Positions 8,581 to 59,566 are shown, counted from the first letter of the stretch. The stretch is 64,000 nucleotides of DNA from Candidatus Moraniibacteriota bacterium (GCA_030645735.1 JAUSNP010000006.1:68095-132094); one strand, 5' to 3'. Translations and numbers: made by a program. Notes: generated by a model from the sequence alone, not told the origin.

Positions 8581-8620
8581 ACCAGGTAGTTGTAAATTCT
8601 TTATTGAGTTTGCAATTTTA

Positions 8621-10186
8621 TTATGAGAGTTTGATCCTAGCTCAGGATGAACGCTGGCGGCGTGGATAAGGCATGCAAGTCGAGAGGGTTTAGACCCTCG
8701 GCAAACGGGTTAGTAATACATAGGAATCTGCCCTGAAGTCGTGAATAACTCGGAGAAATCCGTGACAATGCACGATAGTCTCTACGGAGTAAAGATTTAT
8801 CGCTTCAGGAGGAGCCTGTGTCCTATCAGCTTGTTGGTAGTGTAATGGACTACCAAGGCTATGACGGGTAGGGGGTGTGAGAGCACGACCCCCAACATTG
8901 GGACTGAGACACTGCCCAAACTCCTACGGGAGGCTGCAGTCGAGAATATTCGTCAATGCCCGAAAGGGTGAACGAGCGACGCCGCGTGCGGGATGAAGGC
9001 CCTTGGGTCGTAAACCGCTTTTCTTAGGGAAGAATGTAATGACGGTACCTAAGGAATAAGAGGCTACTAACTCTGTGCCAGCAGTAGCGGTAATACAGAG
9101 GCCTCAAGCGTTATCCGGATTTATTGGGCGTAAAGAGCATGTAGGCGGATATATTAGTCGGATGTCAAATCTTCGAGCTCAACTTGAAAACTGCATTCGA
9201 AACGGTATATCTAGAGACAGTCAGAGATCAATGGAACGTATGGTGTAGCAGTGAAATGCGTTGATATCATACGGAACACCAAAGGCGAAGGCATTTGGTT
9301 AGGGCTGTTCTGACGCTGAGATGCGAAAGCGTGGGTAGCGAATGGGATTAGATACCCCAGTAGTCCACGCCGTAAACGATGCATACTAGGTATTAAGAGA
9401 ATCGACCCTCTTAGTGTCGTAGCTAACGCGTTAAGTATGCCGCCTGGGAAGTACGGTCGCAAGACTAAAACTCAAAGGAATAGACGGGGATCCGCACAAG
9501 TGGTGGAGCATGTGGTTTAATTCGACGATAAGCGGGACACCTCACCATGGTTTGAAACTTAGCTGCATTATACAGAAATGTATAAGCCTTCGAGGGTGCT
9601 AAGCAGGCGCTGCACGGTTGTCGTCAGCTCGTGTCGTAAGATGTTCTGTTAAGTCAGGAAACGAGCGCAACCCCTATCGTGTGTTATATTGTCACACGAG
9701 ACTGCCCGGAACAAAGCGCACTTCGTGCGCAATGATCAATTATCAATAATCAATTTTCATTAAATGGAAATTGTAAATTGAAAATTGTAAATTGCGTGCT
9801 TTAGTAAAGCGCGTTTCGTTCCGGGAGGAAGGTGGGGATGACGTCAAATCAGCGTGGCCCTTTGACACCATGGGCAACACACGTGCTACAATGGCCAATA
9901 CAAAGGGTTGCCAAGTCGCGAGACGGAGCTAATCCCAAAAAATTGGTCTCAGTTCAGATTGGAGTCTGCAACTCGACTCCATGAAGCCGGAATCACTAGT
10001 AATCGTGAATCAGAACGTCACGGTGAATACGTTCTCGGATCTTGTACTCACCGCCCGTCACACCAAGAGAGCCGGTAACACCCAAAGATCCTGTTTTAAA
10101 GCAGGAGCCACGGTGGGATCGGTAATAAGGGTGAAGTCGTAACAAGGCATCCGTAGCGGAAGCTGTGGATGGATCACCTCCTTTCT
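8621..10186 (+). rRNA. rrs: 16S ribosomal RNA with a ~118-nt expansion insertion at 9707-9824
   Basis: 5' end GAGAGTTTGATCCTAGCTCAG and 3' end GGATCACCTCCTTTCT. The insertion lies between GACTGCCCGG and GGAGGAAGGTGGGGA. Confidence 0.95.
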
Positions 10187-10484
10187 AGGGAGTAGTGGTG
10201 AACAGTGGCTCTTCGGAGCCGCAATCATCTAATGGTCGTTTGCATTCTTCGGAATGCAAAAGCTAGGCTCGAACAGGACTAATCACAAAAGATAATGATT
10301 TACTGATATATACAAGAAAAAGATAAGGCGGGGGAAACCCTGTTTTTTGTGTTATAATTTCTACATAATATTATTAACGATAATCTGATATGCCAAAAGG
10401 AAATGTAGTACATATATCGAAACTTGATGCAGCAAAGAGACAGCTAGATTCGGCTATTAAGATGTTTTTTCACGACTCAGATAT

Positions 10485-10913
10485 GTGGTACGTCACACCG
10501 TTATTGCTGCTGCACATGGTATTTTAAGCGATATTGCTATAAAAAAGGGGATCAAGACAATAATTGCTAATAATGAAAGAATCAGAAAGGATAAAAAGAA
10601 AGATTATATAAAAATTGTGCATGAAGCTCAAAATTTTTTTAAGCATGCTGATTTTGAAGGTGACGAGAGCAAAATATTAGAATTTATCCCAGATTTAACA
10701 GAATTTCATCTGTACGATGCATGTTTAATATATCAAGAAATAACACAGGAAAGACCGATGTTGCATTTTTTGTTCATGGCTTGGTTTTCCGTAAAGCATC
10801 CAAAATTATTTGAAAGCGAAAGAATTTCTAAGGTTGCTGCTTGTCTTCCATTTGAGAATAAGATGGCCTACCTTGAACTTTTGCCAGAGCTTGAAAGACA
10901 AAATGAAAATTAA
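10485..10913 (+). CDS. hypothetical protein, apparently frameshifted relative to an upstream 47-codon ORF (10390-10533)
   Basis: GTG-start ORF. An upstream ATG ORF (MPKGNVVHISKLDAAKRQLDSAIKMFF...) in another frame overlaps it at a T6 run (10465-10470). Confidence 0.4.
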   Translation: MVRHTVIAAAHGILSDIAIKKGIKTIIANNERIRKDKKKDYIKIVHEAQNFFKHADFEGDESKILEFIPDLTEFHLYDACLIYQEITQERPMLHFLFMAWFSVKHPKLFESERISKVAACLPFENKMAYLELLPELERQNEN

Positions 10914-10946
10914 TTATTTGTAGTATATCTTTAATATGATAAGCCT

Positions 10947-11582
10947 ATGAAAATAATCCTTGCGTCAGATTCTAGTTTTCTTTTGAAATATGGATATGCT
11001 CTGGCAGGCATTCCTAAGAATCAAATGAAAATTGGTTATATTACTACGGCCTCAAAAGGAGCTCGTAATTTTGGTCAGAGAGTGCAAGAAATTATAATGC
11101 CTAGTATAAAAGAAAATGGATATTCGCTTGATGAAATAGATATTGTGGGCAAAAGTAAAGATGAATTACGAAATTTTTTCAAAGACAAAAATGTTATCCA
11201 GATGGAGGGTGGCAATACTTTTTATTTGTTGAAAGCAATTCGCGAAACTGGTTTTGCTGAAATTCTCAAAAAATTGCTTGAAGAAGGCAGAATTTATATC
11301 GGCTCAAGTGCGGGGGCGTATATAGCGTGTCCAAGCATTGTTGTGGCGGACTGGGCTGATGAGACAGCTGACAGGTTTGGAATTTCTGATTTTACGGCTC
11401 TCAATTATGTTCCATTCGTTCTGAAAGCTCATTATACTGATGAAAAAGAAATAGAAGTCAGGGAGGGCATGCAAACCTTGAAATATCCTATGCGTATTCT
11501 CAGAGATGGTGAAGGTATTTTTTGTGAAGATGGGGTATGTAAATTTGTTGGGGATGGAGAGGAAGTTAAATTTTCTAATTAA
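10947..11582 (+). CDS. peptidase S51 (dipeptidase E-like)
   Basis: QMEGGNTFYLL...IYIGSSAGAYIACP fits the S51 GGNT / Ser-nucleophile context. Confidence 0.7.
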   Translation: MKIILASDSSFLLKYGYALAGIPKNQMKIGYITTASKGARNFGQRVQEIIMPSIKENGYSLDEIDIVGKSKDELRNFFKDKNVIQMEGGNTFYLLKAIRETGFAEILKKLLEEGRIYIGSSAGAYIACPSIVVADWADETADRFGISDFTALNYVPFVLKAHYTDEKEIEVREGMQTLKYPMRILRDGEGIFCEDGVCKFVGDGEEVKFSN

Positions 11583-11599
11583 TTCTAAATAAAAGTTAT

Positions 11600-12265
11600 A
11601 TGAAAACGACCTATCTAAAAGAGTTTGTTAATTATTCAGCAAGAAAAATAGCTTTTATTCCAGTTGGTACTTTGGAATGGCACGGGAATCACTTGCCGAT
11701 TGAAACGGATTTTTTAGTAGCGCAAAAAATTTGTGAAATTTTGAATAAGAAAATTAAGGCTTATGTATTGCCACCCATATATTTGGGCACAGATAAGGAG
11801 CGGGTGGTTGCTGGAAAGAAATTCATCGGAATGAACTCAAGATTCAGCAAGGAATTGCAGGGTAGCGTATACTATTTAAAGCCAGAGCTATTATTATTAA
11901 TGATCCAGGGATTGATCGATAACTTGGTTAAGCAAGGATTCACGAAAATCTATATTGTTACAGGTCACGCGGGTAGCAAGCAGGTGGAAGTTTTGGAAGA
12001 GATTGAAAAAAATAACAAGACCGTAACATTTCTCAACCCGTATGGACAATTAAAATTCCATGTCGAACATGCTGATGAATATGAATCATCTCTTTTTTGG
12101 GCGTGCTATCCAGAACATGAAGCAATAAGTAGAAAAATTAAAATAAAAAATGATGATGACTATATAAAATTTGTTGGATATGACCCAAGAGAGAAAGCAT
12201 CATTAAAATTAGGAAATAAGATATTGAAAGGTATGATTTCAACTTTGAATAAAAAGATAAAATGA
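11600..12265 (+). CDS. creatininase-family amidohydrolase
   Basis: PVGTLEWHGNHLPIETD is the creatininase-family metal-binding signature. Confidence 0.7.
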   Translation: MKTTYLKEFVNYSARKIAFIPVGTLEWHGNHLPIETDFLVAQKICEILNKKIKAYVLPPIYLGTDKERVVAGKKFIGMNSRFSKELQGSVYYLKPELLLLMIQGLIDNLVKQGFTKIYIVTGHAGSKQVEVLEEIEKNNKTVTFLNPYGQLKFHVEHADEYESSLFWACYPEHEAISRKIKIKNDDDYIKFVGYDPREKASLKLGNKILKGMISTLNKKIK

Positions 12266-12918
12266 ACAGTAAAATTTCAACCATCATTTTCGACTTAGAT
12301 GGCGTGATTGTGGATAGCGAGCCAATGCATTTTGAGGCGGCCAAGGAGACAATGAATGAATTTGGAATCAAGCTGACTCTTGAGGAATATATGGAATTTG
12401 GCGTGGCGAAAGGAGCGAGAAATTTGTTTGAAAAACTTTCGGAAAAATATAAAATAGACATAGATATCAACAGGGCGTTTGAAATAAAGAAAAACAAATT
12501 TCAAGAGATTTTTGAAAAAAACGCTTTTCCAAGAAAAGGGATTTTGGAATTGCTTGAGTCGTTTGAGGGAAAATATACCTTGGCAATTGCATCCTCAGGC
12601 ACAAGGGAAAGTGTTATGTTTGTTTTGGACAAGTTGAATATTGCAAACAAGTTTTCCTTGATTGTTGTGGCGGAAGATGTTTCCAGAGTGAAGCCATTTC
12701 CGGATATTTATAACAAAACAGTCCAAATGCTTGGGGTGGACAAGGATTATTGCGTGGCCATTGAAGATTCCGCAACTGGCGTCACGGCTGCCAAAGAGGC
12801 TGGCATACGCTGCCTCGCCGTGCCTTGTGAGTTCACGAAAAATCAGAATTTTTCTGATGCCTATGTTGTTTTGGAGAATATTGAACAGATAGCTGATTTC
12901 GTAGAGAAATTGACATAA
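12262..12918 (+). CDS. HAD-IA hydrolase (beta-phosphoglucomutase-like)
   Basis: IIFDLDGVIVDSE motif I, plus later HAD motifs. Confidence 0.85.
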   Translation: MNSKISTIIFDLDGVIVDSEPMHFEAAKETMNEFGIKLTLEEYMEFGVAKGARNLFEKLSEKYKIDIDINRAFEIKKNKFQEIFEKNAFPRKGILELLESFEGKYTLAIASSGTRESVMFVLDKLNIANKFSLIVVAEDVSRVKPFPDIYNKTVQMLGVDKDYCVAIEDSATGVTAAKEAGIRCLAVPCEFTKNQNFSDAYVVLENIEQIADFVEKLT

Positions 12919-13028
12919 CCAACGAAAAGTGATACAATTATACTTCAGTTCTTTGGCATTTTCAATATAGATTGCTAGGCAATTTTATAGAGGCTAACAT
13001 CCAAAAATTCAACGGGAGATTGGCGATT

Positions 13029-13367
13029 ATGAAGAAACATCCTGAAAAGTCCGATATTTCGATGTTTGAGGCGAAATGGGTCATAACGGGAATGATCTGC
13101 ATGAGTAGGAAGTGGAATCTCCGCAAAGCATATTCGTTCGAGATTTCTTTCAGGGCTTTCCCTGCCAACGCAGAAAAGAAGGCTCTCGAATGCCTAAAAT
13201 CTTTTACGAATAAAGAAAGGGGACTCGCAAGCATCAATAAGTTCGCTATGAGTTCGGTGGAAGTCAGAAGTGGTTCGCAAGCCTTCCGTGTAAATGGGCC
13301 GTTTTGTAACAATAGTATTCACTATGCAAAGCGTACCAGACTTGTTTTCGAAAAAGTAGTTTCATGA
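13029..13367 (+). CDS. hypothetical protein (ORFan mini-island gene 1)
   Basis: ATG after a GGGAG SD. An antisense ORF of similar length overlaps it, so the coding call is weak. Confidence 0.3.
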   Translation: MKKHPEKSDISMFEAKWVITGMICMSRKWNLRKAYSFEISFRAFPANAEKKALECLKSFTNKERGLASINKFAMSSVEVRSGSQAFRVNGPFCNNSIHYAKRTRLVFEKVVS

Positions 13368-13380
13368 AATTAATCAGGGG

Positions 13381-13632
13381 GTGAATACGATGCATAATAA
13401 TGAAAATATTCCACCAGCTGGACATGTTCTCTTGGCGGAAATTCCCAATCTGGATGAAAAGCAAAGAGCTTTTCTGAGAAGACGAAACATTTCTCATGGA
13501 ATGTGGATGCTTGATGACCCACAAGAGAGACTTGAAGTCAGTCGCTTTGGCGGTATGGGCGAAAAGCCAGAATGGCAAATCTTTCGCGGAAAAATCAGTG
13601 ATTGGCAAGGTTGGGTTGGGGTTAAACCTTGA
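13381..13632 (+). CDS. hypothetical protein (ORFan mini-island gene 2)
   Basis: Good SD (AGGGGG) 7 nt upstream, followed by a strong terminator. Confidence 0.45.
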   Translation: MNTMHNNENIPPAGHVLLAEIPNLDEKQRAFLRRRNISHGMWMLDDPQERLEVSRFGGMGEKPEWQIFRGKISDWQGWVGVKP

Positions 13633-13652
13633 CTCGGGGAATTCCGCACAAA

Positions 13653-13705
13653 GGGACTCGGTCGCGATTGCAGAGGCAATTTTGCGACTGGGTCCCTGTT
13701 TTTTT
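13653..13705 (+). terminator. rho-independent terminator
   Basis: GGGACTCGGTCGC...GCGACTGGGTCCC hairpin followed by TGTTTTTTT. Confidence 0.75.
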
Positions 13706-13732
13706 GACCAAGATTGGCAATTTTGTTAGAAT
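13704..13732 (+). promoter_or_regulatory. sigma70-type promoter (TTGACC-17-TAGAAT)
   Basis: A perfect 17-nt spacer. It drives the 13798 gene. Confidence 0.65.
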
Positions 13733-13797
13733 TTTTATATAGTTCTGTTCTTAAAGCTGCTAAAAAGCAGAAAACTAAAAAGACTAGTGGGGGTATT

Positions 13798-14127
13798 ATG
13801 CCGATTATTGAGCGTAATGAAAAAAGGTTTGAAGTTGATGACGACGGATTTTTACGCGTTGCGCTTGAGAAACGAGATCCGGATTGGGAAAGGTGTGTCA
13901 TGGTCAGTACTGGTATTGATGAATTGACACCCGAATTGCAACGCGTGCTGGATGAAATCTGGGCGCATTACAAACGAACCGGTCTAATCCCAATAATCCA
14001 GGTTTTAGCAAAAAATACTGGTTTGTCACTCGTAAGGATTTCCAAATTGTCCTTGATGAGTCCCAAAAACTGGGCTTCCAAAATGCTTGGCTTGCGAGCA
14101 ATTGACTGCAAGACAAGTCATGGGTAG
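13798..14127 (+). CDS. hypothetical protein with C-terminal HTH-like segment (ORFan mini-island gene 3)
   Basis: ATG preceded by a GTGGGGG SD. IIQVLAKNTGLSLVRISKL is HTH-like. The track ORF start at 13714 lies inside the promoter. Confidence 0.5.
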   Translation: MPIIERNEKRFEVDDDGFLRVALEKRDPDWERCVMVSTGIDELTPELQRVLDEIWAHYKRTGLIPIIQVLAKNTGLSLVRISKLSLMSPKNWASKMLGLRAIDCKTSHG

Positions 14128-14152
14128 CGCGAAAACTCTCGCGTGTTGTGTG

Positions 14153-14186
14153 GGCTGAACTCCTTTTGGGGTTCAGCCTTTTTATT
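14153..14186 (+). terminator. rho-independent terminator
   Basis: GGCTGAAC...GTTCAGCC hairpin followed by TTTTTATT. Confidence 0.75.
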
Positions 14187-14228
14187 CGCCCAAAACAGCT
14201 TTTTTTGATATGATAAACGTATAATTGA

Positions 14229-15047
14229 GTGGTAAGAAATATCATGGAATTTAAAACGGAAACTGTTCAAGGACCACGAGACAATGAAATTTCTTTTTCA
14301 CCGGAACGCGGTGGTATCATTAGGTCAATGAAATTGAAGGGCAAAGAAGTTTTGTTTGTGGATGAGGTGACTTTTGCGGATGCGGAAAAAAATGTACGGG
14401 GCGGAATCCCGATTCTTTTTCCCAACGCTGGGCCACTGACTGGCGAAAACAATCCATATCCAGATCTCAAGCAACACGGTTTTGCTAGACTTTCCAATCA
14501 ATGGAAAGTGGAAGAATCGAACGCTGGAAAATTTAGTGAAAAATTGGCTTCCAACGAAGATACGAAAGCAGTTTTTCCCTTTGATTTGGAAACTCGCATG
14601 AGAGGTGAATTGAATGAGGATGGCTCAGTGACACTGACACAAGAAGTCACTAATTTAGAAGCAGAAAGAGAGATGCCAGTTTCCATGGGTTTGCATCCCT
14701 ATTTCAAAGTTTCAAATACTGAAAAAAGAAATATCAAATTCAATTTTGCTGGCGGAGAAATTGTTGAAGCCGATTTTGCTGTTTGGTCGCAAGGCGGAAC
14801 CACGCGTATCGACAATCCCAAAATTCATGATTCTGAGGCAGTTTTGCGGGTAGAAATTCCAGGGTTGGGAACCCTAGTCATAGACGCCTCGGCAGAATAC
14901 CAACGCATCTGGATCTGGTCGTTGCCAGAGCAAGATTTCATCTGCATTGAGCCGGTCATGCGAGATGACGGCGGACTTTTGGATGACCCGCAAATGGTGA
15001 AACCCAGCGAAACATTTTCAGGCAGAGTCAATTTTAGGTTGGAATAG
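14229..15047 (+). CDS. aldose 1-epimerase family protein (glucose-6-phosphate 1-epimerase-like)
   Basis: GGIPILFPNAGP and GLHPYFKV motifs. ATG 14244 is the probable start. Confidence 0.8.
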   Translation: MVRNIMEFKTETVQGPRDNEISFSPERGGIIRSMKLKGKEVLFVDEVTFADAEKNVRGGIPILFPNAGPLTGENNPYPDLKQHGFARLSNQWKVEESNAGKFSEKLASNEDTKAVFPFDLETRMRGELNEDGSVTLTQEVTNLEAEREMPVSMGLHPYFKVSNTEKRNIKFNFAGGEIVEADFAVWSQGGTTRIDNPKIHDSEAVLRVEIPGLGTLVIDASAEYQRIWIWSLPEQDFICIEPVMRDDGGLLDDPQMVKPSETFSGRVNFRLE

Positions 15048-15065
15048 GCTAAAAAACAGTTCCAT

Positions 15066-15093
15066 TTGACAATTTTCGCTTAAATGCTAGATT
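15066..15093 (+). promoter_or_regulatory. sigma70-type promoter (TTGACA-16-TGcTAGATT)
   Basis: Upstream of the sensor gene. Confidence 0.5.
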
Positions 15094-15141
15094 ATAGGGG
15101 CATACTCAGTAGCTTCCCTTAAATCACTTAAGTGCGAAGAT

Positions 15142-17196
15142 ATGGAGCAGTTGAAAAAAAACTACCGAGTCTGGATATTTCCGTTCGGCATGATCGCCAG
15201 TTCGTTCTTCTTGTTTATCACTAGCCTATATAGCCTATTACTTTTTCATGTTCTAGTTGAGCTGTTTATCATAGTAATCGCTTTTGGTATTTTCGTCATT
15301 GCTTGGTCATCGCGACGATATATAAATAATATCTTCTTGCTCTTACTTGGAATCAGCTATTTATTTGTCGGAGCAATAGATTTGTTTCATTTGCTTACCC
15401 ATGATGATATGAATATAATCATGGACTATGGCGCTAATCTTTCCATTCAATCATGGGTCATCGCTAGATATTTAGAGGCTGCATCATTTATTGCGGCCTT
15501 TTTGTTGTTCAAGAAGGGCGTTAATGGTGTTCATGTCATAGCCAGAATAAGATCGCGTCAGATATTCTTTATTTACGCTTTGATATTTATAGCAAGCATG
15601 GCTTCAATTCTGGCATTTAATATTTTTCAGTCGGCAGCTGTGACAGGAATTGGAATGGCACATTTCAAGGCATATAACGAATATATAATCTCAGCTATTT
15701 TTTTCGGTTCAATAATCCTACTTTTTAAAAAAAGAAAGATATTTGATCGGGAGGTGGCCAATCTGCTTTCTTTGTCTTTGATTATGAAAGTTATCGCCGA
15801 GGTGTTATTTGCGAAATATGGCGGCGTGAATTGTTTTGCAGATATACTGGGAAATATTTTATTTTTTATATCTTTTCTTCTATTATATAAAGCTGTAATT
15901 GAAGGCGGATTGATGCGGCCATATAGATTTTTGTTTTTGGATCTTAAAAAAAGCGAGAAGCGCTATCGGTCGTTGGTTGAGTTTTCTCCGGATGCAATTG
16001 TAGTCCATAGCGATGGCAAAATTCTATATGCGAATGGGCCGGCGAAAAAACTTTTTGGTATTGAAGAAGATGAAAAACTCATTGGCGCTGAGCTGACTGA
16101 TTTTTTCGGTCCAGAATATCGGGAACGGATACGCCTGCGGATAAAGAATATTTTTAGTGGCAAATGGAAGGAAGCACCAACCACGGAAATGGAAATTTTA
16201 CATGCGAATGGACGCACAATTTCAGTGGAAGTCAAGGGCATGAAAATAATTTATGAGGGAAAAGAGGCGATAGAATCAATTATCCGAGATGTTTCAGAGC
16301 GAAAATTGACTGAAGAAAAAATACGGAGCTTGGCGAGATTTCCTGAGGAGGATCCTAGCCCAGTAATCAGAGTGCTGGGAGATGGCCAGGTTCAATATGC
16401 CAATCGTCCAGCGCGCAGAATGCTTTTGCATTTGGGTTGGAGTGAAGGCAGAGTGTTGCCGGAAATCTTGTTTTTGCCTGTTCGGCAGGTTTTGGAAAAA
16501 GGAATCAAACAAGAAGTGGAAGTGACTTGTGTGTGCGGTCGAGTATTTGCCATTATGTTTGCTCCGAGCTTAACTGAAAACTGGGTAAATTTGTATGGAC
16601 GCGAGATCACTAAACGCAAGATAATGGAAAAAGAATTGATTGAGACGCAGGCAGAGCTGAGAAAGAAAATTGAAGAGCAATTGGTGGAGTCATACAAACA
16701 TCTTGGTTTGGTCAATCGCAAAATATCTTTATTGCTGGAGCTGGACAGCCATTCTCAAGACAAAAAAAATAAACATGAGATTGTTGAATATATCTTGAAT
16801 TCATTGATAAATCTTTCACATGCCAAAGCCGGATTGCTATATTTAGCCATCGGTAAAAATCATTTCAATTTAATTTCCAGCGCCGGCTTGAAAAAAGAAA
16901 AACTGTCTGGAGTGCAAGTTGTCACTGAAAGCAGCGCTGATTTTATGCGTCAATTGACGTCCGCAGGCAAGCGGGTCAATGGTTCGTGTGAGCTAGTAAA
17001 TCCAGGTTTATTTAACATTGAATCGACTTTTAGTTATTTTGTGGCGTTGCCAATCTTGGCAGGCAATATTTGCAAGGGCTTTTTGTTCCTAGGCTTCAAT
17101 GATCGCAAAAGCATGGATGTGCAAGAGTTGGAGTTTCTGGATGTGTTTGCCAAACATGTTTCTTCAGCGCTGACTAATTCTGGTTTTTTGAACTAA
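15142..17196 (+). CDS. membrane sensor protein with N-terminal multi-TM domain, two PAS-like domains and C-terminal GAF-like domain; no kinase/output domain detected
   Basis: About six TM helices, then the PAS-like SLVEFSPDAIVVHSDGKILYANGPAKKLFG and a second PAS-like segment. The C-terminus is GAF-like. No H-box or HATPase motifs. Confidence 0.7.
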   Translation: MEQLKKNYRVWIFPFGMIASSFFLFITSLYSLLLFHVLVELFIIVIAFGIFVIAWSSRRYINNIFLLLLGISYLFVGAIDLFHLLTHDDMNIIMDYGANLSIQSWVIARYLEAASFIAAFLLFKKGVNGVHVIARIRSRQIFFIYALIFIASMASILAFNIFQSAAVTGIGMAHFKAYNEYIISAIFFGSIILLFKKRKIFDREVANLLSLSLIMKVIAEVLFAKYGGVNCFADILGNILFFISFLLLYKAVIEGGLMRPYRFLFLDLKKSEKRYRSLVEFSPDAIVVHSDGKILYANGPAKKLFGIEEDEKLIGAELTDFFGPEYRERIRLRIKNIFSGKWKEAPTTEMEILHANGRTISVEVKGMKIIYEGKEAIESIIRDVSERKLTEEKIRSLARFPEEDPSPVIRVLGDGQVQYANRPARRMLLHLGWSEGRVLPEILFLPVRQVLEKGIKQEVEVTCVCGRVFAIMFAPSLTENWVNLYGREITKRKIMEKELIETQAELRKKIEEQLVESYKHLGLVNRKISLLLELDSHSQDKKNKHEIVEYILNSLINLSHAKAGLLYLAIGKNHFNLISSAGLKKEKLSGVQVVTESSADFMRQLTSAGKRVNGSCELVNPGLFNIESTFSYFVALPILAGNICKGFLFLGFNDRKSMDVQELEFLDVFAKHVSSALTNSGFLN

Positions 17197-17213
17197 ATCA
17201 ACAACCACTGAAA

Positions 17214-17239
17214 AAAACACTCGATGCGGGAGTGTTTTT
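17214..17239 (+). terminator. rho-independent terminator
   Basis: ACACTCGATGCGGGAGTGT followed by TTTTTG. Confidence 0.65.
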
Positions 17240-17240
17240 G

Positions 17241-17249
17241 TGGTATAAT
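17241..17249 (+). promoter_or_regulatory. extended -10 promoter element TGgTATAAT
   Basis: TGnTATAAT about 32 nt upstream of ATG 17281. Confidence 0.55.
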
Positions 17250-17280
17250 TAAGATACTAAATAAGCTAAACGGCTTTTGT

Positions 17281-19746
17281 ATGTCAAAGAAAAATTTCTT
17301 CAGTTGGTATTATTTGGATGGAACTGGTGAATTGATTGGATTTGTAAAAAATATACTTGCCTATTATTGGCGCTATTTCGGAATTCCGGATCATCTGCGT
17401 CATTTGTTTTCACCTTGGAAAAGGGATGTGGAAGTTTCGGCAGAGCGTGGATTTCATCCATTGATTCGGTTGAATTTTTTCATAATCAATAGTTTTTCTC
17501 GCATCTTGGGAATGATAGTTAAATTGGGTGTGATAAGCACAGGCATTGTGGTTGAATCTGCATTGTTTATCGCCGGCATAACTGTGATCGCTTTCTTTGT
17601 TATCTGTCCAGTGTTGTTGCTGTTGGCAGTCTGGCTGTTTTTGAATGCTAGCAATTTTTGGTTGGTTTGGGTGTGTCTGATTTTTTTGGGCATAGTTATG
17701 CGCGCTCATTTTGTTTATCAAAGAAGTCTCTATCGAGATTTGAGCCTGAAGGAAATTTCCGAGCAAAAATTCTTCGGTCGAATCGCCAACAGGATTGGCA
17801 TCAGTGCGGATGCTTTGGCGATAATTTTTAGATTGGGCCTAGACGACGAAGAGTCAAAGAAAATTTTTGCCTCAGTAGGCTTGGATGCGGATGATGTGCT
17901 GAGGGCAATCAAATGGGAAATTGACACGCAGGAACAAAAAGAAAATCGGCAAAAGTTTTGGAGTAGGGCACGGACTGGAATTGTGCGTCAATTGGGCATC
18001 GGTTGGAAATATGCCTACACAGTTAAGCTTGACCGTTTTGCAACTGACTTGACTGAATTTGACCCATCGGCATATTCGCGCGCGCATCTGGTGGGGCACA
18101 AAAAAGAATTGGGCTTGGTTGAGATCGCTTTGCAAAATCAAACCCGCAACAATGTGATGCTGGTCGGCAGTCCGGGAGCGGGCAAGAAATCTTTGATTCA
18201 TATGCTAGCCAGAAACATTCGTGAGGGCAAGGCAGACGCCTTCTTTGAGGACAAACGGATTGTGCTGTTGGATTTGGGTTCAGCGATTGGCCAAGTTTTG
18301 CAAAAAGGCGGGAATGTAGAAAATTTTCTGGGTCATATTTTTTCTGAAGCCGCCTATGCTGGCAATGTGATTTTGGTGATTGAAAACATTGAGGAATTTT
18401 TAGGCAAAGATTCATCCAATGGACGGCCGAACATCGCGCCAATTTTGCAGGATTTTTTGAATGTACCGACTTTTCAAATCATTGCCACTTCAACGACTAA
18501 AGAATATCACCACTTGATTGAACGGCATGACAATTTGATGAAATATTTCGATGTGGTGGAAATGAGTGATTTCACGGAAGAAGAGGCTTTGCGCGTGGTG
18601 TTGCATAAATTCAGACCTTTGGAAGCTGGAGATGTTTTGTTCACCTACGCTGGATTGAAAGAAATTGTGAAAAAAGCTGGTCGTTATGGCGGGCTCAAGC
18701 CGTTGCCGGAAAAATCAGTTGAACTAGCGGAAGAAGTTTTCAATTATTGGAAAGCAGGGGAGATAGTCAAAAGAATTGATGCGGAAATCGTGGAAGACTT
18801 TGTTTCCATCAAGACGGGTATTCCCGTGGGAAAGATAAGTGACTCAGAGCGGGGCAAGTTGTTGAATTTGGAAGATGACTTGCGCGAGCGAGTGATTGGA
18901 CAAGAGGAGGCTATTGCTGATGCGGCAAGCGCGGTGCGCAAGATTCGTTCTGGCATTGCGCGAGCAAACAAGCCGGCTGGCAGTTTTCTTTTCTTGGGTC
19001 CAACAGGCGTGGGCAAAACAGAAACGGCCAAGGCTTTGGCAGATGTTTATTTTGGCGATGAGAAAAAAATTGTGCGATTGGATATGAGTGAATTTCAAAA
19101 TCCATCAGCAGTTGAATCTTTGATTGGCTCGCAAGCCTTGAATGAACCTGGTCGATTGGGAAGTTTGATGCGCGACAATCCCTACACCGTCTTGCTTATC
19201 GATGAAATTGAAAAAGCCTATCCCAAGATTTTAGATTTATTTTTGCAGGTTTTGGACGAAGGTTATTTGACGGATGCCTTTGGCGACAAAATTGATTTCA
19301 GAAATTGTGTGGTCATTGCCACTTCCAATGCTGGATCATCGCTGATTAGAAAATTGGAAGCTTCGGGTGTGGCTAAAAAAGATGTTGAAAGAGAAGTCAT
19401 AAACGACATCATCGAAAGCGGTACATTCCGACCGGAATTTTTGAATCGCTTCGACAAGGTGGTGGTATATAATATTTTAAATCAAAATGAACTTTTACGC
19501 GTGACGAATATGCTGTTAGACAAGTTGGCGACGCGGGTCAAAAACGAAAAAGATATTGAAGTGAATTTTGCCTCAGGCGTGGCAGAGAAAATTGTAGAAT
19601 TGGGCTACAATGAAATTTTTGGCGCGCGTTCGATCGAGCACTTCATCGGCAACACTTTAGAAAACACGCTGGTGACCAAAATAATCGCCGGCGGACAGGA
19701 AATTGATGACAAAACCATCAATGTTTCCGCTGAAGAAATCGGTTGA
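17281..19746 (+). CDS. membrane-anchored ClpA/ClpB-type double AAA+ ATPase
   Basis: The N-terminus has about 3 TM helices. Two Walker A motifs (GSPGAGKKS; GPTGVGKTE) and a ClpA/B-type AAA2 block (FLNRFDKVVVY). No long M-domain. Confidence 0.8.
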   Translation: MSKKNFFSWYYLDGTGELIGFVKNILAYYWRYFGIPDHLRHLFSPWKRDVEVSAERGFHPLIRLNFFIINSFSRILGMIVKLGVISTGIVVESALFIAGITVIAFFVICPVLLLLAVWLFLNASNFWLVWVCLIFLGIVMRAHFVYQRSLYRDLSLKEISEQKFFGRIANRIGISADALAIIFRLGLDDEESKKIFASVGLDADDVLRAIKWEIDTQEQKENRQKFWSRARTGIVRQLGIGWKYAYTVKLDRFATDLTEFDPSAYSRAHLVGHKKELGLVEIALQNQTRNNVMLVGSPGAGKKSLIHMLARNIREGKADAFFEDKRIVLLDLGSAIGQVLQKGGNVENFLGHIFSEAAYAGNVILVIENIEEFLGKDSSNGRPNIAPILQDFLNVPTFQIIATSTTKEYHHLIERHDNLMKYFDVVEMSDFTEEEALRVVLHKFRPLEAGDVLFTYAGLKEIVKKAGRYGGLKPLPEKSVELAEEVFNYWKAGEIVKRIDAEIVEDFVSIKTGIPVGKISDSERGKLLNLEDDLRERVIGQEEAIADAASAVRKIRSGIARANKPAGSFLFLGPTGVGKTETAKALADVYFGDEKKIVRLDMSEFQNPSAVESLIGSQALNEPGRLGSLMRDNPYTVLLIDEIEKAYPKILDLFLQVLDEGYLTDAFGDKIDFRNCVVIATSNAGSSLIRKLEASGVAKKDVEREVINDIIESGTFRPEFLNRFDKVVVYNILNQNELLRVTNMLLDKLATRVKNEKDIEVNFASGVAEKIVELGYNEIFGARSIEHFIGNTLENTLVTKIIAGGQEIDDKTINVSAEEIG

Positions 19747-19771
19747 CTTTTCGCCTAAATTGGCATAAGAT
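19743..19771 (+). promoter_or_regulatory. sigma70-type promoter (TTGACT-17-TAAGAT)
   Basis: Upstream of the 19860 gene. Confidence 0.45.
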
Positions 19772-19859
19772 AGATTATTAATGAAATTTATTGATTTCGG
19801 TCTTTTACAATAGGAAAGTAACTTAATCTCAGTATTCACTAAATAAAGGGGAGTGGAAT

Positions 19860-20102
19860 ATGTCCGAAGAAGCCATAGTAGTTTTTAAAAAAGGCGATAA
19901 GGTTCACGTTGATTTCAGGGCTCTCGATAAATTGATCAAAAAAACGAGACCCATATCTGCGAGAAGACTTTTGGGCCTTTTCAATGTAGACAAGATGTAC
20001 ATTATTCACCAGGTCAGTGAGGGTGGCGAAACAGTTGAGTTGGTGGGCTTTGAAGGCGTCCCCTATGACGCGAAACTATTTATTTTGGTCACGCGCCAGT
20101 AG
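19860..20102 (+). CDS. hypothetical small protein
   Basis: 80 aa with a strong SD, AAAGGGGAG. Confidence 0.5.
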   Translation: MSEEAIVVFKKGDKVHVDFRALDKLIKKTRPISARRLLGLFNVDKMYIIHQVSEGGETVELVGFEGVPYDAKLFILVTRQ

Positions 20103-20183
20103 TGCTGAAGTGAAAACGCGCACCTGATTGCGCCAAAAAAACATATCTTTTTGTTGTCAGGGACAAAAGGAGAGGAGGATGAA

Positions 20184-20822
20184 ATGAAGAAGGACACAAA
20201 TCCCAAAAGGAAGATTGAAAGGGCCTTGATTAGCCTGACTGACAAGGCAGGTATTGAGGAATTTGCCCGACACCTGCAGGAGCTGGGAGTGGAGATTCTT
20301 TCCACTGGCGGCACTGCCAAAAAGATGCGGGAGAGCGGTATCAAGGTGATGGACGTTTCCGAATTCACCGGCTTTCCCGAGATGCTGGACGGCCGGGTTA
20401 AAACCCTGCATCCCAAGGTGCACGGCGGGATTCTGGCCCAGAAGACCAACCCCGAGCACCTGACCCAGATGGCCGCCCACGGCCTGTTGCCCATCGATCT
20501 GGTCGCCGTCAACCTCTATGCCTTTGAAAAGACCGTCGCCAAGGGAGACTGCAGTCTGGCCGAAGCCATTGAGAACATCGATATTGGCGGGCCGACCATG
20601 TTGCGGGCTGCGGCCAAGAACTATCGTGACGTCACCGTGCTGGTCGATCCCGCCGACTATCCCCAGGTCATCGCCGAGATGCGGGTGACCGGCAACACCA
20701 CCCTCAAAACCCGTTTCCGGCTGGCCTGCAAGGTATTCTTCCTAACCAGTACCTACGACACAGCCATCTCGGACTGGCTCGAGAAGATCAATGTTGAGAC
20801 CCACCAAGAGCTTCAAGATTGA
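20184..20822 (+). CDS. purH: PurH N-terminal IMP cyclohydrolase (MGS-like) domain only; AICAR transformylase domain absent
   Basis: [71 protein letters not shown]...[16 protein letters not shown] matches the PurH IMPCH domain. The ORF stops at the interdomain linker. The segment is strikingly GC-rich relative to its flanks. ATG 20184 follows the SD AGGAGAGGAGG. Confidence 0.75.
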
Positions 20823-20921
20823 GGCCCGAAGTGAAATGCTACAAGCTTTAAATGAGGCCGGTTCCACTCTTGGAATCGGCCTTAGATTTTTTATAGAGCA
20901 GAAAAATATTTCTAAAATAGA

Positions 20922-21872
20922 TTACAAATTTTTCAATTTCTTTTTTCGCACCACATACATCGGTCGCTTGATAACTTCGATGTGGATGTTGGCAATGTAG
21001 AGTGAAATGAGGCCGATGGAAATCAGGAGGATGCCGACCAAAAAAATGATAAGGATGGCGAGGCTTTCTGAATCGGAAAAAGTTGAGGCGAATTCCCAGT
21101 GCAGGATATATTTGCCTATCAAAACATACAATCCAGACAGTCCAGAAAGCAGGGTAGTCAGAAGGCCTAGATAGCCGGCGAGCTTGAGGGGCACAAAACT
21201 GAGTGACACGAAACTGTTGAGAGCCAGTTTGCTGAGCTTCCAGAAGCTATAGCTGGCGTCACCATGCAGGCGTTCGTTGGCCTCAAAGTGGATGTAGGCG
21301 CGTCGGAAGCCGAGCCAATCGATGAGTCCACGAGTCATGCGATTGGTTTCAGTGAAGCGATTGAATTCGTCAATCACAACTCTGTCTAGCAGACGGAAAT
21401 CAGTTGAATTTGGCATAACTGGTTCTTCAACTATGGTGTTTAAAATTTTATAAAATAATTTTGAGCCAAGCGCTTTGAGCAATGAAATATTTTTGCTCTT
21501 TTTCCGTACGCCCACCACCACTTCAAAGCCCTGTTCCCATTTTTCCAGAAATTTTGGAATGAGTTCAGCCGGATGTTGCAAGTCAGCGTCAATCATGATG
21601 CAGGCGTCACCAGAACAATTGTTGAGCCCAGCGGTAGTAGCAACCTCTTTGCCGAAGTTTCTGGAAAAATCAATGTATTGCACAGCAGAATCTTCAATGA
21701 CTAATTTTTCAATTTCACTGCCTGTTTCGTCGGTGCTGCCGTCATTGATGAAAATAATTTCATGGGCATATTTGTCACTCAGAGTCTGAAAAATTTTTTC
21801 TAATTTTTCATAAAGTGGATGGATGTTTTTGGCTTCATTGTGAGCAGGAATGATGATAGAAATTGTTTTCAT
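20922..21872 (-). CDS. glycosyltransferase family 2 (polyprenol-phosphate glycosyltransferase-like) with C-terminal TM helices
   Basis: MKTISIIIPAHNEAKNI...INDGSTDET...DADLQHP are GT2 motifs. Confidence 0.85.
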   Translation of the reverse strand: MKTISIIIPAHNEAKNIHPLYEKLEKIFQTLSDKYAHEIIFINDGSTDETGSEIEKLVIEDSAVQYIDFSRNFGKEVATTAGLNNCSGDACIMIDADLQHPAELIPKFLEKWEQGFEVVVGVRKKSKNISLLKALGSKLFYKILNTIVEEPVMPNSTDFRLLDRVVIDEFNRFTETNRMTRGLIDWLGFRRAYIHFEANERLHGDASYSFWKLSKLALNSFVSLSFVPLKLAGYLGLLTTLLSGLSGLYVLIGKYILHWEFASTFSDSESLAILIIFLVGILLISIGLISLYIANIHIEVIKRPMYVVRKKKLKNL

Positions 21873-21937
21873 AGTTTTAGAGCTTGGCAGTGGCCAGCCA
21901 AGGCATTATTACACTGGTATTATAGCACATATTTTTG

Positions 21938-21946
21938 TGGTATACT
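21938..21946 (+). promoter_or_regulatory. extended -10 element TGgTATACT
   Basis: Upstream of 21992. It sits in a divergent region shared with the GT2 gene. Confidence 0.45.
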
Positions 21947-21991
21947 GAATAGGTAGAAAATACTAATCTTTATTTTGAAAGGAGGTGTTTT

Positions 21992-22603
21992 ATGAATAAA
22001 AATATAATTGTTGGCGTAGTTGTAGCTATCATTGTGTTGGGTGCAGGCGCTTTCTTTTTCATGAAAGGGAAATCTGTCAATGCTCCAGTAAACGGTGTCG
22101 CCAATCAAGTTGTTGAACAAGGCGGAGTGACATCTGCTGTGAAACAAGGTTTGATGGGTATGTTGGAAAATGCCACTGGTGTGAAGTGTTCCGTGTCTGA
22201 TGCAACTGGCAGTTATACCGTCATTGCCAAAGGTGAGAAAGCTAGAATCGAAGGTATGAATTTTGCCAATCCATCTGATCCAACGCAAAAAGATGAGCGT
22301 GGCACGATGATCAACAATGGCGACTGGGCTTTCATTTGGAGCGGCAAGGAAGGCATGAAATTCAATATGAAAGAAATGCAAGCAGCCAATCCACAAACAG
22401 CGGCTGAAGAGCCAACTGATTGGAGAGGTTGGGCCGCTGAAATGCAAAACTCTGGTGCCAAATATGAGTGCAATCCGACCGTGGCAACTGATTTAGATTT
22501 CACTCCGCCAGCAGATGTGAAATTTCAAGATTTAGGTGAAATGATGAGAGGTTTCCAGAATATGCAAAATAACACCCAAATCCCGCCGATGCCAGTGCAA
22601 TAA
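21992..22603 (+). CDS. hypothetical membrane-anchored protein
   Basis: N-terminal TM helix IIVGVVVAIIVLGAGAFFF. SD AAAGGAGG. Confidence 0.5.
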   Translation: MNKNIIVGVVVAIIVLGAGAFFFMKGKSVNAPVNGVANQVVEQGGVTSAVKQGLMGMLENATGVKCSVSDATGSYTVIAKGEKARIEGMNFANPSDPTQKDERGTMINNGDWAFIWSGKEGMKFNMKEMQAANPQTAAEEPTDWRGWAAEMQNSGAKYECNPTVATDLDFTPPADVKFQDLGEMMRGFQNMQNNTQIPPMPVQ

Positions 22604-22619
22604 AATAGTAATATTTTGC

Positions 22620-22652
22620 AAAAAAGCTACCCCATGGTAGCTTTTTTTGTTT
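22620..22652 (+). terminator. rho-independent terminator
   Basis: AAAAAGCTACCCCATGGTAGCTTTTTTT. Confidence 0.8.
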
Positions 22653-22676
22653 TGGAGGTAATATGTTAATAATCCT

Positions 22677-22705
22677 TTGACTTTTTAGCGGTTTGGTGCT
22701 AGGAT
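22677..22705 (+). promoter_or_regulatory. sigma70-type promoter (TTGACT-17-TAGGAT)
   Basis: Upstream of the 22736 gene. Confidence 0.5.
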
Positions 22706-22735
22706 GTTCTATCTAAGCAAATAAGCTTTTCTCCT

Positions 22736-23752
22736 ATGAAAACAGGCTTTTTAATAGAATATGCTCGTCGCCACTGGATACTTTTTCGAAGAGTTTTTTT
22801 GCATAAAAAAAATCTTCAACGCGACCTGCTTGTCATTGTTTTGTCTATAATTATTGCCGCGCTTTTCATTTTGGTGGATAAGGATGTATCTTTTCGTTCG
22901 ATCGGCCAGTCATTATTTGCAAACTTTAACTGGCAAAAAACAATTGAAATTAGTGATAACAAACCAGTAGAGCTATCCGATGAAGCAATGGCTGTAGAAA
23001 TTCACACTGTCCAAGGAATGTTCAACTTGAATCAATGGAAAGATTATCGCAGTCAGTGGTATGGTATTGAAATAAAATATCCGGAAACTTGGAATGCTCC
23101 GGTGGCGCGAGCCGCTGCGAGTGGTTCAAAATGGGAATATAAATATCAGTTCAGCAAAAAAGATGTGAAGGATTCGGATTTGTATGCCGGTTTTGATTTG
23201 ATGGTTTATAATTTGGCTAAAACCAAGGAAGTCTCCAATACTGAAGAATTTCCGGTTTTGAAAAATATTGAACAATGTCAAAATGCGCAGGTTCACCTGA
23301 TTGAAACTGGTGATTATCCAGCCGAAGAGATTTATGTCCCGCAATCGGACGATTGCTATAATCCGACATTGTTCTTCAGTTTTACACGAGGAGAATATAT
23401 CTATAACCTCGTGCCATTCGTGAAGCCTGGTGTTGAAATGCTGGGTGATCCGCGCGTGGAAATTGTGGACAATTTTCCGGAATTTTTTGCGGCAGCTTCA
23501 TCACTCAATATTGTTGATATTGTGCGTCCAAAACCGGTTGTTGTAGTTTCAAAGCCCAGAGTATATGCGCCAATGCCGATTACTTTTAAAAAATCTAGCA
23601 AAGGCTTGGTTTGCGCCAAAGCTAATGATCATCCTAGCAAAAGCAATAAAGGCAAGGGTAAACATATGGATATGGAATGCTGTTTGGATCCGGATGAATA
23701 CCCAAATCCAAACTGTCATTATTCTGAATCTAAATACGGCAAATATCTATAG
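22736..23752 (+). CDS. hypothetical membrane-anchored protein
   Basis: 338 aa with one TM helix. Cys/His-rich C-terminus (HMDMECCLDPDEYPNPNCH). Confidence 0.45.
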   Translation: MKTGFLIEYARRHWILFRRVFLHKKNLQRDLLVIVLSIIIAALFILVDKDVSFRSIGQSLFANFNWQKTIEISDNKPVELSDEAMAVEIHTVQGMFNLNQWKDYRSQWYGIEIKYPETWNAPVARAAASGSKWEYKYQFSKKDVKDSDLYAGFDLMVYNLAKTKEVSNTEEFPVLKNIEQCQNAQVHLIETGDYPAEEIYVPQSDDCYNPTLFFSFTRGEYIYNLVPFVKPGVEMLGDPRVEIVDNFPEFFAAASSLNIVDIVRPKPVVVVSKPRVYAPMPITFKKSSKGLVCAKANDHPSKSNKGKGKHMDMECCLDPDEYPNPNCHYSESKYGKYL

Positions 23753-23770
23753 AACTTTTTGATATATACA

Positions 23771-23803
23771 ACGCCAACAAGTGAACTCTTGCTGGCGTTT
23801 TTA
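23771..23803 (+). terminator. rho-independent terminator
   Basis: CGCCAACAAG...CTTGCTGGCG hairpin followed by TTTTTATTT. Confidence 0.75.
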
Positions 23804-23843
23804 TTTATTTCAATTCTGTATTAGAATGAGGGTGTAAACATAA

Positions 23844-24028
23844 GAGCCTGTTCATAATCTCAACGCTAATAATAAAAACTAACATATTGCTTGCCTGCTA
23901 AAATATTCCTAATTTCGGCTGCAAACCCTTCAAAGCTCGTCAGGTTATCTCGATAGCCTTTCTCACTTTTCATGGTTTTCGCACGAAATTAGAAAATTTT
24001 ATCTAGGCATGAGATTATGAACAGGCTC
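23844..24028 (+). repeat. structured inverted-repeat element copy B (candidate ncRNA / MITE-like), 185 nt
   Basis: 19-bp perfect terminal inverted repeat GAGCCTGTTCATAATCTCA / TGAGATTATGAACAGGCTC. The core is about 85% identical to copy A. TAGAAT lies 17 nt upstream. Confidence 0.7.
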
Positions 24029-59513: not shown

Positions 59514-59540
59514 AACAAGGTTCAAAAGCCTTGTTTTTAA
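59514..59540 (+). terminator. rho-independent terminator
   Basis: ACAAGGTTCAAAAGCCTTGT followed by TTTTAAT. Confidence 0.65.
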
Positions 59541-59566
59541 TTTATTCTTTATTTTTTTTAATCAAT

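Follow-up and report, generated by a model that had tools for sequence, protein, structure and literature searches.

Several described systems come close to the gene considered here, a stand-alone IMP cyclohydrolase (IMPCH) gene at positions 20184..20822 (+ strand) of a 64,000-nucleotide (nt) stretch of DNA from a Candidatus Moraniibacteriota bacterium (GCA_030645735.1, JAUSNP010000006.1:68095-132094), the whole of which we call the window. Bifunctional PurH/ATIC (PDB 1p4r, 3zzm, 9ou7; TIGR00355 / PRK00881) carries, besides its N-terminal IMPCH domain, an AICAR (5-aminoimidazole-4-carboxamide ribotide) formyltransferase (AICARFT) domain of ~310 residues. In PurH2/PurJ the IMPCH domain is instead a separate gene, known mainly from archaea; each half of PurH is active alone, and the isolated IMPCH half, which converts formyl-AICAR (FAICAR) to inosine monophosphate (IMP), is catalytically autonomous and partnered in trans with PurH1 or PurP (PMC3261824). 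ForH, of formycin biosynthesis (PDB 6nko), likewise has a stand-alone MGS-like cyclohydrolase fold of ~200 amino acids (aa). As for the arrival of such a gene, single-gene horizontal transfer into Patescibacteria from other phyla is known, with Desulfobacterota among the rare donors from outside the candidate phyla radiation (CPR) (PMC12455944); our literature search found nothing specific on IMPCH or purH in CPR/Patescibacteria. Taking identity, origin and intactness jointly, and leaving physiological use aside, we put the probability that the window's IMPCH gene is an intact, fairly recent single-gene acquisition from a Desulfobulbaceae-type donor at roughly 85%.

The open reading frame (ORF) is a complete coding sequence of 212 aa plus stop, and Pfam, NCBIfam and PDB alignments all agree with an earlier reading of this DNA (the original prediction) that it corresponds to the N-terminal MGS-like IMPCH domain of PurH. 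The Pfam family MGS (PF02142) matches at 2.8e-24 (85.5 bits against a gathering threshold of 24.1), and the match to AICARFT_IMPCHas (PF01808) is limited to model positions 1-60 of 311. The ORF spans positions 3-199 of 510 in one NCBIfam purH model with 292 bits, under the 402-bit full-length cut-off, and scores 281 bits against a full-length cut-off of 528 in a second, which sets it apart from bifunctional PurH. It aligns to residues ~2-200 of the solved PurH/ATIC chains, their N-terminal domain, at 45-56% identity (best PDB sequence match 2.9e-64). No AICARFT domain follows, just as the original prediction had it: three full-length PurH queries run against all six frames of the 64 kb returned a sole match, at 20202-20789. 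AlphaFold2 (28 sequences) models the 212-aa protein with a mean predicted local distance difference test score (pLDDT) of 83.7 and a predicted template modelling score (pTM) of 0.83. Foldseek matches this model to the N-domains of PurH/ATIC (3zzm/1p4r) at E = 3e-20 with a query TM-score (TMq) of 0.78-0.79, and to ForH with a target TM-score (TMt) of 0.82. The product is the IMPCH domain alone, with the predicted fold of the PurH N-domain. Like PurH2/PurJ it is the IMPCH half by itself; unlike the PurH2/PurJ genes described so far, it is bacterial and appears horizontally acquired, and a partner formyltransferase was not found in the 64-kb window. From ForH it differs in pathway context and in sequence, the two being only 33-35% identical.

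The short architecture is not a peculiarity of this copy. In a homology search of 5.8 billion proteins, the closest relatives share 76-90% aa identity with it and nearly all are 204-206 aa long; the 120 closest homologs listed run to ~200-230 aa throughout, save for one entry of 279 aa. Where these are named, they are "IMP cyclohydrolase" of Desulfobulbaceae (P0029, for example, is "IMP cyclohydrolase [Desulfobulbaceae bacterium]"), Desulfurivibrionaceae, Desulfurivibrio alkaliphilus (P0114) or Desulfolithobacter. Among 80 metagenomic relatives, all those with at least 69% identity are stand-alone proteins of ~200-215 aa, full-length PurH (520-545 aa) appears only at 67% identity or less, and the GC content of the gene equals that of its flanks in every case. 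Since the stand-alone form is native to a well-populated family, the short architecture must be older than the transfer and is not a truncation made in the host; the terms "truncated purH" and "gene fragment" used in the original prediction do not fit a gene whose closest relatives are themselves ~204-aa stand-alone genes.

When the 119 best proteins are placed in a neighbour-joining tree, the one from the window falls inside a Desulfobulbaceae-type clade, beside P0006 and P0061 and then P0002, P0003, P0004, P0008, P0019 and P0029, and this nesting gives the direction of transfer. We compared four loci of the donor type (L002, L003, L004 and L091; GC 0.57-0.63), and they share one context: a FolE2-type GTP cyclohydrolase (GCHY-1) on the opposite strand, then Hsp15/S4, IMPCH, a purN-like Formyl_trans_N gene of 188-193 aa that begins ~10 nt past the IMPCH stop, and a phosphoribosyltransferase (PRTase). 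Within 8 kb on either side of the IMPCH gene, none of the four contains an AICARFT domain. The Desulfobulbales proteins (P0002, P0004, P0006, P0029, P0114) have the same domain make-up as the window copy, align with it gap-free at 76-90% aa and up to 85% nt identity, end within one codon of it and share its near-invariant residues except for the old start methionine. They lie, however, in loci of 57-63% GC with the Hsp15-IMPCH-purN-PRTase arrangement, whereas the window copy sits in a 40%-GC genome between an 80-aa ORFan and a family 2 glycosyltransferase (GT2) gene, has none of that context, and has acquired a new eight-codon N-terminus and a new Shine-Dalgarno (SD) sequence. Sequence comparison thus gives good support to a donor of the Desulfobulbaceae type (sulfate-reducer-type Desulfobacterota) in which the short form is the native architecture.

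The composition of the gene points the same way. GC is 0.567 in the ORF and 0.400 in the window as a whole, and with a 600-nt sliding window the ORF is the top-scoring segment of the entire 64 kb (z 4.5), above even the 16S gene. Third-position GC (GC3) is 0.742 against 0.381 +/- 0.066 for the 59 other genes (z = 5.5), and among all 60 genes it is the sole outlier of this kind, the rest having z of 1.9 or less. A measure of fit to host codon usage modelled on the codon adaptation index (CAI) gives 0.50 against 0.70 +/- 0.04 (z = -5.1). The change in GC is abrupt and confined to ~640 nt around the gene. Both the GC sliding window and the GC3 value bear out the earlier remark that this GC-rich coding DNA is unlike anything else in the window; the accompanying remark that the first ~50 nt are AT-rich like the host loses its force, since donor-type genes likewise start with low GC (0.42-0.48 over their first 60 nt, against 0.42 in the window copy). 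The GC3 of the IMPCH gene, 0.75, lies slightly below that of its nearest donor-type genes (0.78-0.83), and this closeness fits a transfer that was recent relative to the time needed for amelioration. As a separate observation, the upstream 80-aa gene has the second and the GT2 gene the fourth highest GC3 in the window. The gene is thus a compositional outlier, nests in a foreign clade and is absent from the sampled Moranbacteria relatives, where synteny is broken, and on these grounds the foreign origin first proposed for it stands.

The limits of the donor-derived segment can be placed almost to the base. With blastn, donor-type genes align at 81.7-85.2% nt identity, without a gap, only from 20208/20210 to 20797/20805, and we take the segment to be 20208..20819 (+, GC 0.575), spanning donor codon 2 through the final codons. 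At the 5' junction, base-level alignment shows homology beginning exactly at donor codon 2, with the DNA upstream unalignable. The column of the start methionine is ATG in all 118 relatives and AAA (Lys) in the window copy, and the coding sequence instead gains a new 5' end at 20184..20207 (+), seven added codons (MKKDTNP) followed by that AAA. The added N-terminus is predicted to be disordered (AlphaFold2 pLDDT below 50 for residues 1-7), and a search elsewhere in the window for a copy of the leader and new N-terminus found none. At the 3' junction similarity fades at the stop codon, which in the window comes one codon later than in donor-type genes; past it the donor-type genomes run on into the SD and start of purN, and the window DNA does not. 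A tblastx comparison of the donor-type loci with the whole window found no remnant of Hsp15, purN or any other co-transferred gene. Because homology is confined to codon 2 through the stop and nothing else is shared, the transferred piece is one gene of ~612 nt.

The insert is bracketed by a 9-nt direct repeat, GAAGTGAAA (repeat family D13), with one copy upstream at 20107..20115 (+) and the other at 20828..20836 (+), 6 nt past the stop codon. The window contains four copies of this sequence where 1.46 would be expected, repeats of 8-9 nt are common thereabouts, and we estimate roughly that such a flank-to-flank match would arise by chance with a probability of ~0.03; the pair is offered purely as a lead towards microhomology-mediated integration or target duplication. 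A sub-threshold Rfam match to CRISPR-DR45 (20198-20221, - strand; 28.1 bits, the gathering score being 37) also falls exactly at the insert's 5' junction. As it occurs only once and the window contains no array, we set it aside as probably a chance match.

The original prediction had allowed that the gene might be a decaying pseudogene, and here the evidence is contrary. Of the 110 columns in which the 118 closest homologs agree to 98% or more, the window copy departs in just one, that of the old start methionine, and keeps the other 109. The other residues unique to it, H30 and F186, both fall at variable columns and within the range of native sequences. In the 1p4r alignment it retains the equivalents of human ATIC K66, Y104, D125 and K137 and of the SxxDK and GGT motifs, which are catalytic or substrate-binding in ATIC; these positions are invariant in the homolog alignment as well. 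The pairwise ratio of nonsynonymous to synonymous substitution rates (dN/dS) between the window copy and donor-type genes is 0.075-0.09, compared with 0.09-0.10 among the donor-type genes themselves. Polarising window-specific substitutions against L002, L003 and L004 gave 30 synonymous and 13 nonsynonymous changes, counts identical to those of the native control branch, L002. Judged from sequence and predicted fold, the copy is intact, with every feature of active enzymes kept. The synonymous distance (dS) to the nearest sampled relative is ~0.73, which leaves two possibilities: a true donor that is missing from the sample, or some period of evolution of the gene inside the host. Amelioration was considered as proof of residence in the host and rejected: GC-to-AT changes outnumber AT-to-GC changes 32:5, but the native control L002 gives 27:5; the bias therefore comes with the method and the gene themselves and is not diagnostic.

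The gene also has signals for its own translation and termination. A strong SD, GGAGAGGAGG, lies at 20169..20178 (+), 5 nt before the ATG, and it is atypical for the host: only 3 of the 60 window genes, those starting at 19860, 20184 and 21992, all on the + strand and adjacent, have an SD of at least five matching bases (in the regions 19835-19859, 20159-20183 and 21967-21991, respectively), and even a 4-mer SD-like motif occurs in just 10 of the 60, so the host seems largely SD-poor and these three neighbours are conspicuous in it. A promoter scan found no sigma-70-like site in 20103-20183, the 81-nt gap past the ORFan. The nearest promoter-like site is at 19743-19771, ahead of the ORFan, and no + strand terminator intervenes before the IMPCH gene (the region as a whole has no more sigma-70-like sites than shuffled sequence would give). 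The sequence thus suggests that the IMPCH gene is probably co-transcribed with the 80-aa ORFan. Downstream, between the convergent IMPCH and GT2 genes, a predicted intrinsic terminator at 20853..20894 (+) has a 14-bp stem and 4-nt loop (hairpin 20853-20884) followed by a T-run, and folds at -27.3 kcal/mol (z -3.5). We found no riboswitch or other RNA family in the leader. "Host-like expression signals", as the original prediction put it, is therefore the wrong description, given an SD of a strength found in so few genes and a gap with no sigma-70-like promoter. Of its proposal that the gene was grafted onto local signals, one half survives, in that the start codon and leader are indeed new; they are not copied from within the window and are atypical of host genes.

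The surroundings identify the host and say little about the vehicle. Neighbouring proteins on the NCBI record are products of "MAG: Candidatus Moranbacteria bacterium", a metagenome-assembled genome (MAG), on a contig of 329,606 bp, and the window's gene content (murein synthesis, Sec translocon, SerRS, PFOR, NUDIX hydrolases and many hypotheticals) fits a Patescibacteria genome. The insert lies between the 80-aa ORFan (19860..20102, +), directly upstream and listed at NCBI as "hypothetical protein Q7T51_03655" (MDO8241046.1), and the convergent GT2 gene (20922-21872, -; MDO8241047.1); the NCBI products nearby also include an AAA ATPase and the 203-aa Q7T51_03670 (MDO8241048.1). Among the 5.8 billion proteins the 80-aa ORF matched only itself, and so gives no clue to a shared island. 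The AAA ATPase is a ClpC/ClpB-like AAA+ protein (17224-19746, +) for which the first ATG gives 840 aa and the NCBI and Logan start at 17281 gives 821 aa. It has no Clp_N domain, and its N-terminal region of ~280 residues has no Pfam match and looks hydrophobic. Relatives of this protein are only 45-47% identical and not syntenic, two such loci have no IMPCH gene, and a scan of genome contigs with it turned up no near relative of the host. Other Moranbacteria do have GT2 genes with 83-85% nt identity (L092/L093 and L094, including GW2011_GWA2_39_41), in three different neighbourhoods, and the homology of L094 to the window ends exactly at the GT2 stop codon. From these sequences the GT2 3' flank appears to be a hot spot of recombination or rearrangement. 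(A gene neighbouring GT2 in L094 looked dihydroorotase-like by eye, had no Pfam match, and was left unnamed.) We found no integrase or transposase in the IMPCH neighbourhood, and the best viral, phage and plasmid matches to the protein are at most 60% identical and of the full-length PurH type.

On the reading that we favour, ~612 nt, donor codon 2 through the stop, were inserted between the 80-aa ORFan and GT2; for the entry route our simplest guess is DNA uptake followed by illegitimate recombination. The donor's start codon and ribosome-binding site were lost, and a new in-frame ATG seven codons upstream, with its strong SD, takes their place. Transcription would presumably read through from the promoter-like site before the ORFan and end at the hairpin at 20853-20884, and translation would proceed from the new start. 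The protein, as a self-contained domain, would be expected from its sequence and model to cyclise FAICAR to IMP and water. Compared with the cases of transfer described in PMC12455944, this is likewise an individual metabolic gene in a streamlined CPR genome; that paper reports no purine gene, and in our case the junctions are unusually clean, down to the base, and the start of translation has been rebuilt.

Several points weigh against this account. The codon usage of the gene is very poorly matched to the host, and its residence time there is not demonstrable, as the 32:5 excess of GC-to-AT changes is matched by the control; the low dN/dS could be owed for the most part to the time that the gene spent, ahead of its transfer, in an unsampled donor. 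We looked for a clean empty site in relatives of the host and found none, the nearest (85% nt identity across GT2) being rearranged at the exact spot. The 212-aa product is on record from the Logan assembly alone, and the three flanking proteins have consecutive accessions yet locus tags that leave one slot free, from which NCBI likely gives the locus no protein product and annotates it as a pseudogene. The Logan and MAG assemblies may derive from the same reads. Finally, the 64 kb yielded neither AICARFT nor a further purine gene (57 ORFs, Pfam), so FAICAR would have to be supplied through an AICAR formyltransferase encoded outside the window, and with the phylum described as having no known nucleotide biosynthesis (PMC12455944), the enzyme may have no substrate in its host.

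As to function, we would give physiological use, as opposed to carriage of an intact passenger, about even odds. The strongest competing account accepts the transfer and is therefore a sub-case of ours on origin and a rival on function only: a recent illegitimate recombination would have delivered a functionless gene, without FAICAR to act on, that has not yet accrued disabling mutations. We regard this as a serious contender, somewhat short of an even bet. The missing pathway partners, the reported lack of nucleotide biosynthesis in the phylum, the un-ameliorated composition with its very poor codon fit, the restriction of the gene to a single lineage and the probable lack of an NCBI protein product would all be natural for a passenger. 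Against it, the new start looks workable, with a strong SD at ideal spacing, and a strong terminator follows the gene; it also sits less easily with zero substitutions at 109 near-invariant positions and with a synonymous to nonsynonymous count of 30:13, compared with ~1:3 under neutrality, though a share of that branch predates the transfer.

A more ambitious version of the transfer puts the gene in active use: the Moranbacterium would live as an episymbiont on a Desulfobulbaceae-type bacterium, would have gained the gene from this host by DNA uptake, and would convert the host's FAICAR to IMP with the stand-alone cyclohydrolase, possibly beginning with AICAR that an unrecognised enzyme formylates. 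We consider this doubtful. If true, it would be a shortcut of purine salvage in a single step, of a kind so far not described in CPR bacteria, and the transfer would name the symbiont's host.

The original prediction also raised the mundane alternative of an assembly chimera or mis-join, in which reads of co-occurring Desulfobulbaceae were spliced into a Moranbacteria contig. The abrupt GC step limited to ~640 nt is what such an event would produce, and joins of that sort can occur in MAG assemblies. Against this, the two junctions lie only 0.6 kb apart and exactly at the gene ends, without the donor's tightly linked Hsp15 or purN, and the in-frame novel start is absent from all 118 relatives. 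An independent assembler gives the same structure: over window positions 10184-23938 the sequence, both junctions included, recurs at 100% identity in the 13.8-kb Logan contig SRR13727526_644959. Nor is a template to be seen, nothing above 90% aa or 85% nt identity having been found among the 5.8 billion proteins; with the nearest known sequence only 85% identical at the nt level, no known co-assembled donor could have supplied the segment. From the assemblies we therefore judge a chimera improbable, and this part of the original caution is much reduced without being wholly removed.

Less probable again is recruitment of the protein to a non-purine role, such as C-nucleoside biosynthesis of the ForH (formycin) type or service as an MGS-like domain that binds nucleotides or regulates. 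Some stand-alone homologs do have other roles, ForH (PDB 6nko) among them, and the gene adjoins an ORFan and cell-envelope genes in place of purine genes; yet its identity is 90% with the IMPCH of purine clusters and no more than 33-35% with ForH, and just two unique substitutions, both at variable columns, give no sign of neofunctionalisation. The idea that a full-length bifunctional purH was acquired, cut in place at the interdomain linker and is now decaying draws on the ORF's end, which falls at the linker position of bifunctional PurH, and on its score under the NCBIfam full-length cut-offs, but it is barely credible when the nearest relatives are ~204 aa long, end at the same residue to within one codon and are followed by purN and not AICARFT, when full-length PurH is met only at 67% identity or less, when no AICARFT remnant lies downstream or elsewhere in the window, and when conserved columns, dN/dS and branch counts show no decay.

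Elsewhere in the window, a few features stand on their own. A small DsrC/TusE-like protein is encoded at 13798-14127 (+; Pfam DsrC, 2.6e-6), and a SulP-family sulfate permease with a STAS domain at 59531-61330 (+). The 16S rRNA gene (8619-10184) contains short AT-rich tandem repeats with 14-nt and 7-nt units at 9730-9794, and its Rfam match exceeds the model length by ~33 nt, suggesting a small rRNA insertion. At 48507-50207 (+) lies a SecD in which a peptidyl-prolyl isomerase (Rotamase) domain is inserted between the N-terminal P1 segment and the P1 head, an unusual fusion.

On present evidence, then, the acquisition of the IMPCH gene is an ordinary horizontal transfer of uncertain physiological consequence that brings a known enzyme family into a new host phylum. 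As a cross-phylum transfer of a single gene into a Patescibacteria genome, it is unusually clean, resolved to the base and with its translation start rebuilt. It also exposes a trap for annotation: short proteins matching the N-terminal half of PurH are a genuine stand-alone family (~204 aa, widespread in Desulfobulbales) and not truncated purH. Should the host make use of the gene, this would hint that the uncultured Moranbacterium has an orphan step of purine salvage and a partner among the Desulfobulbaceae.

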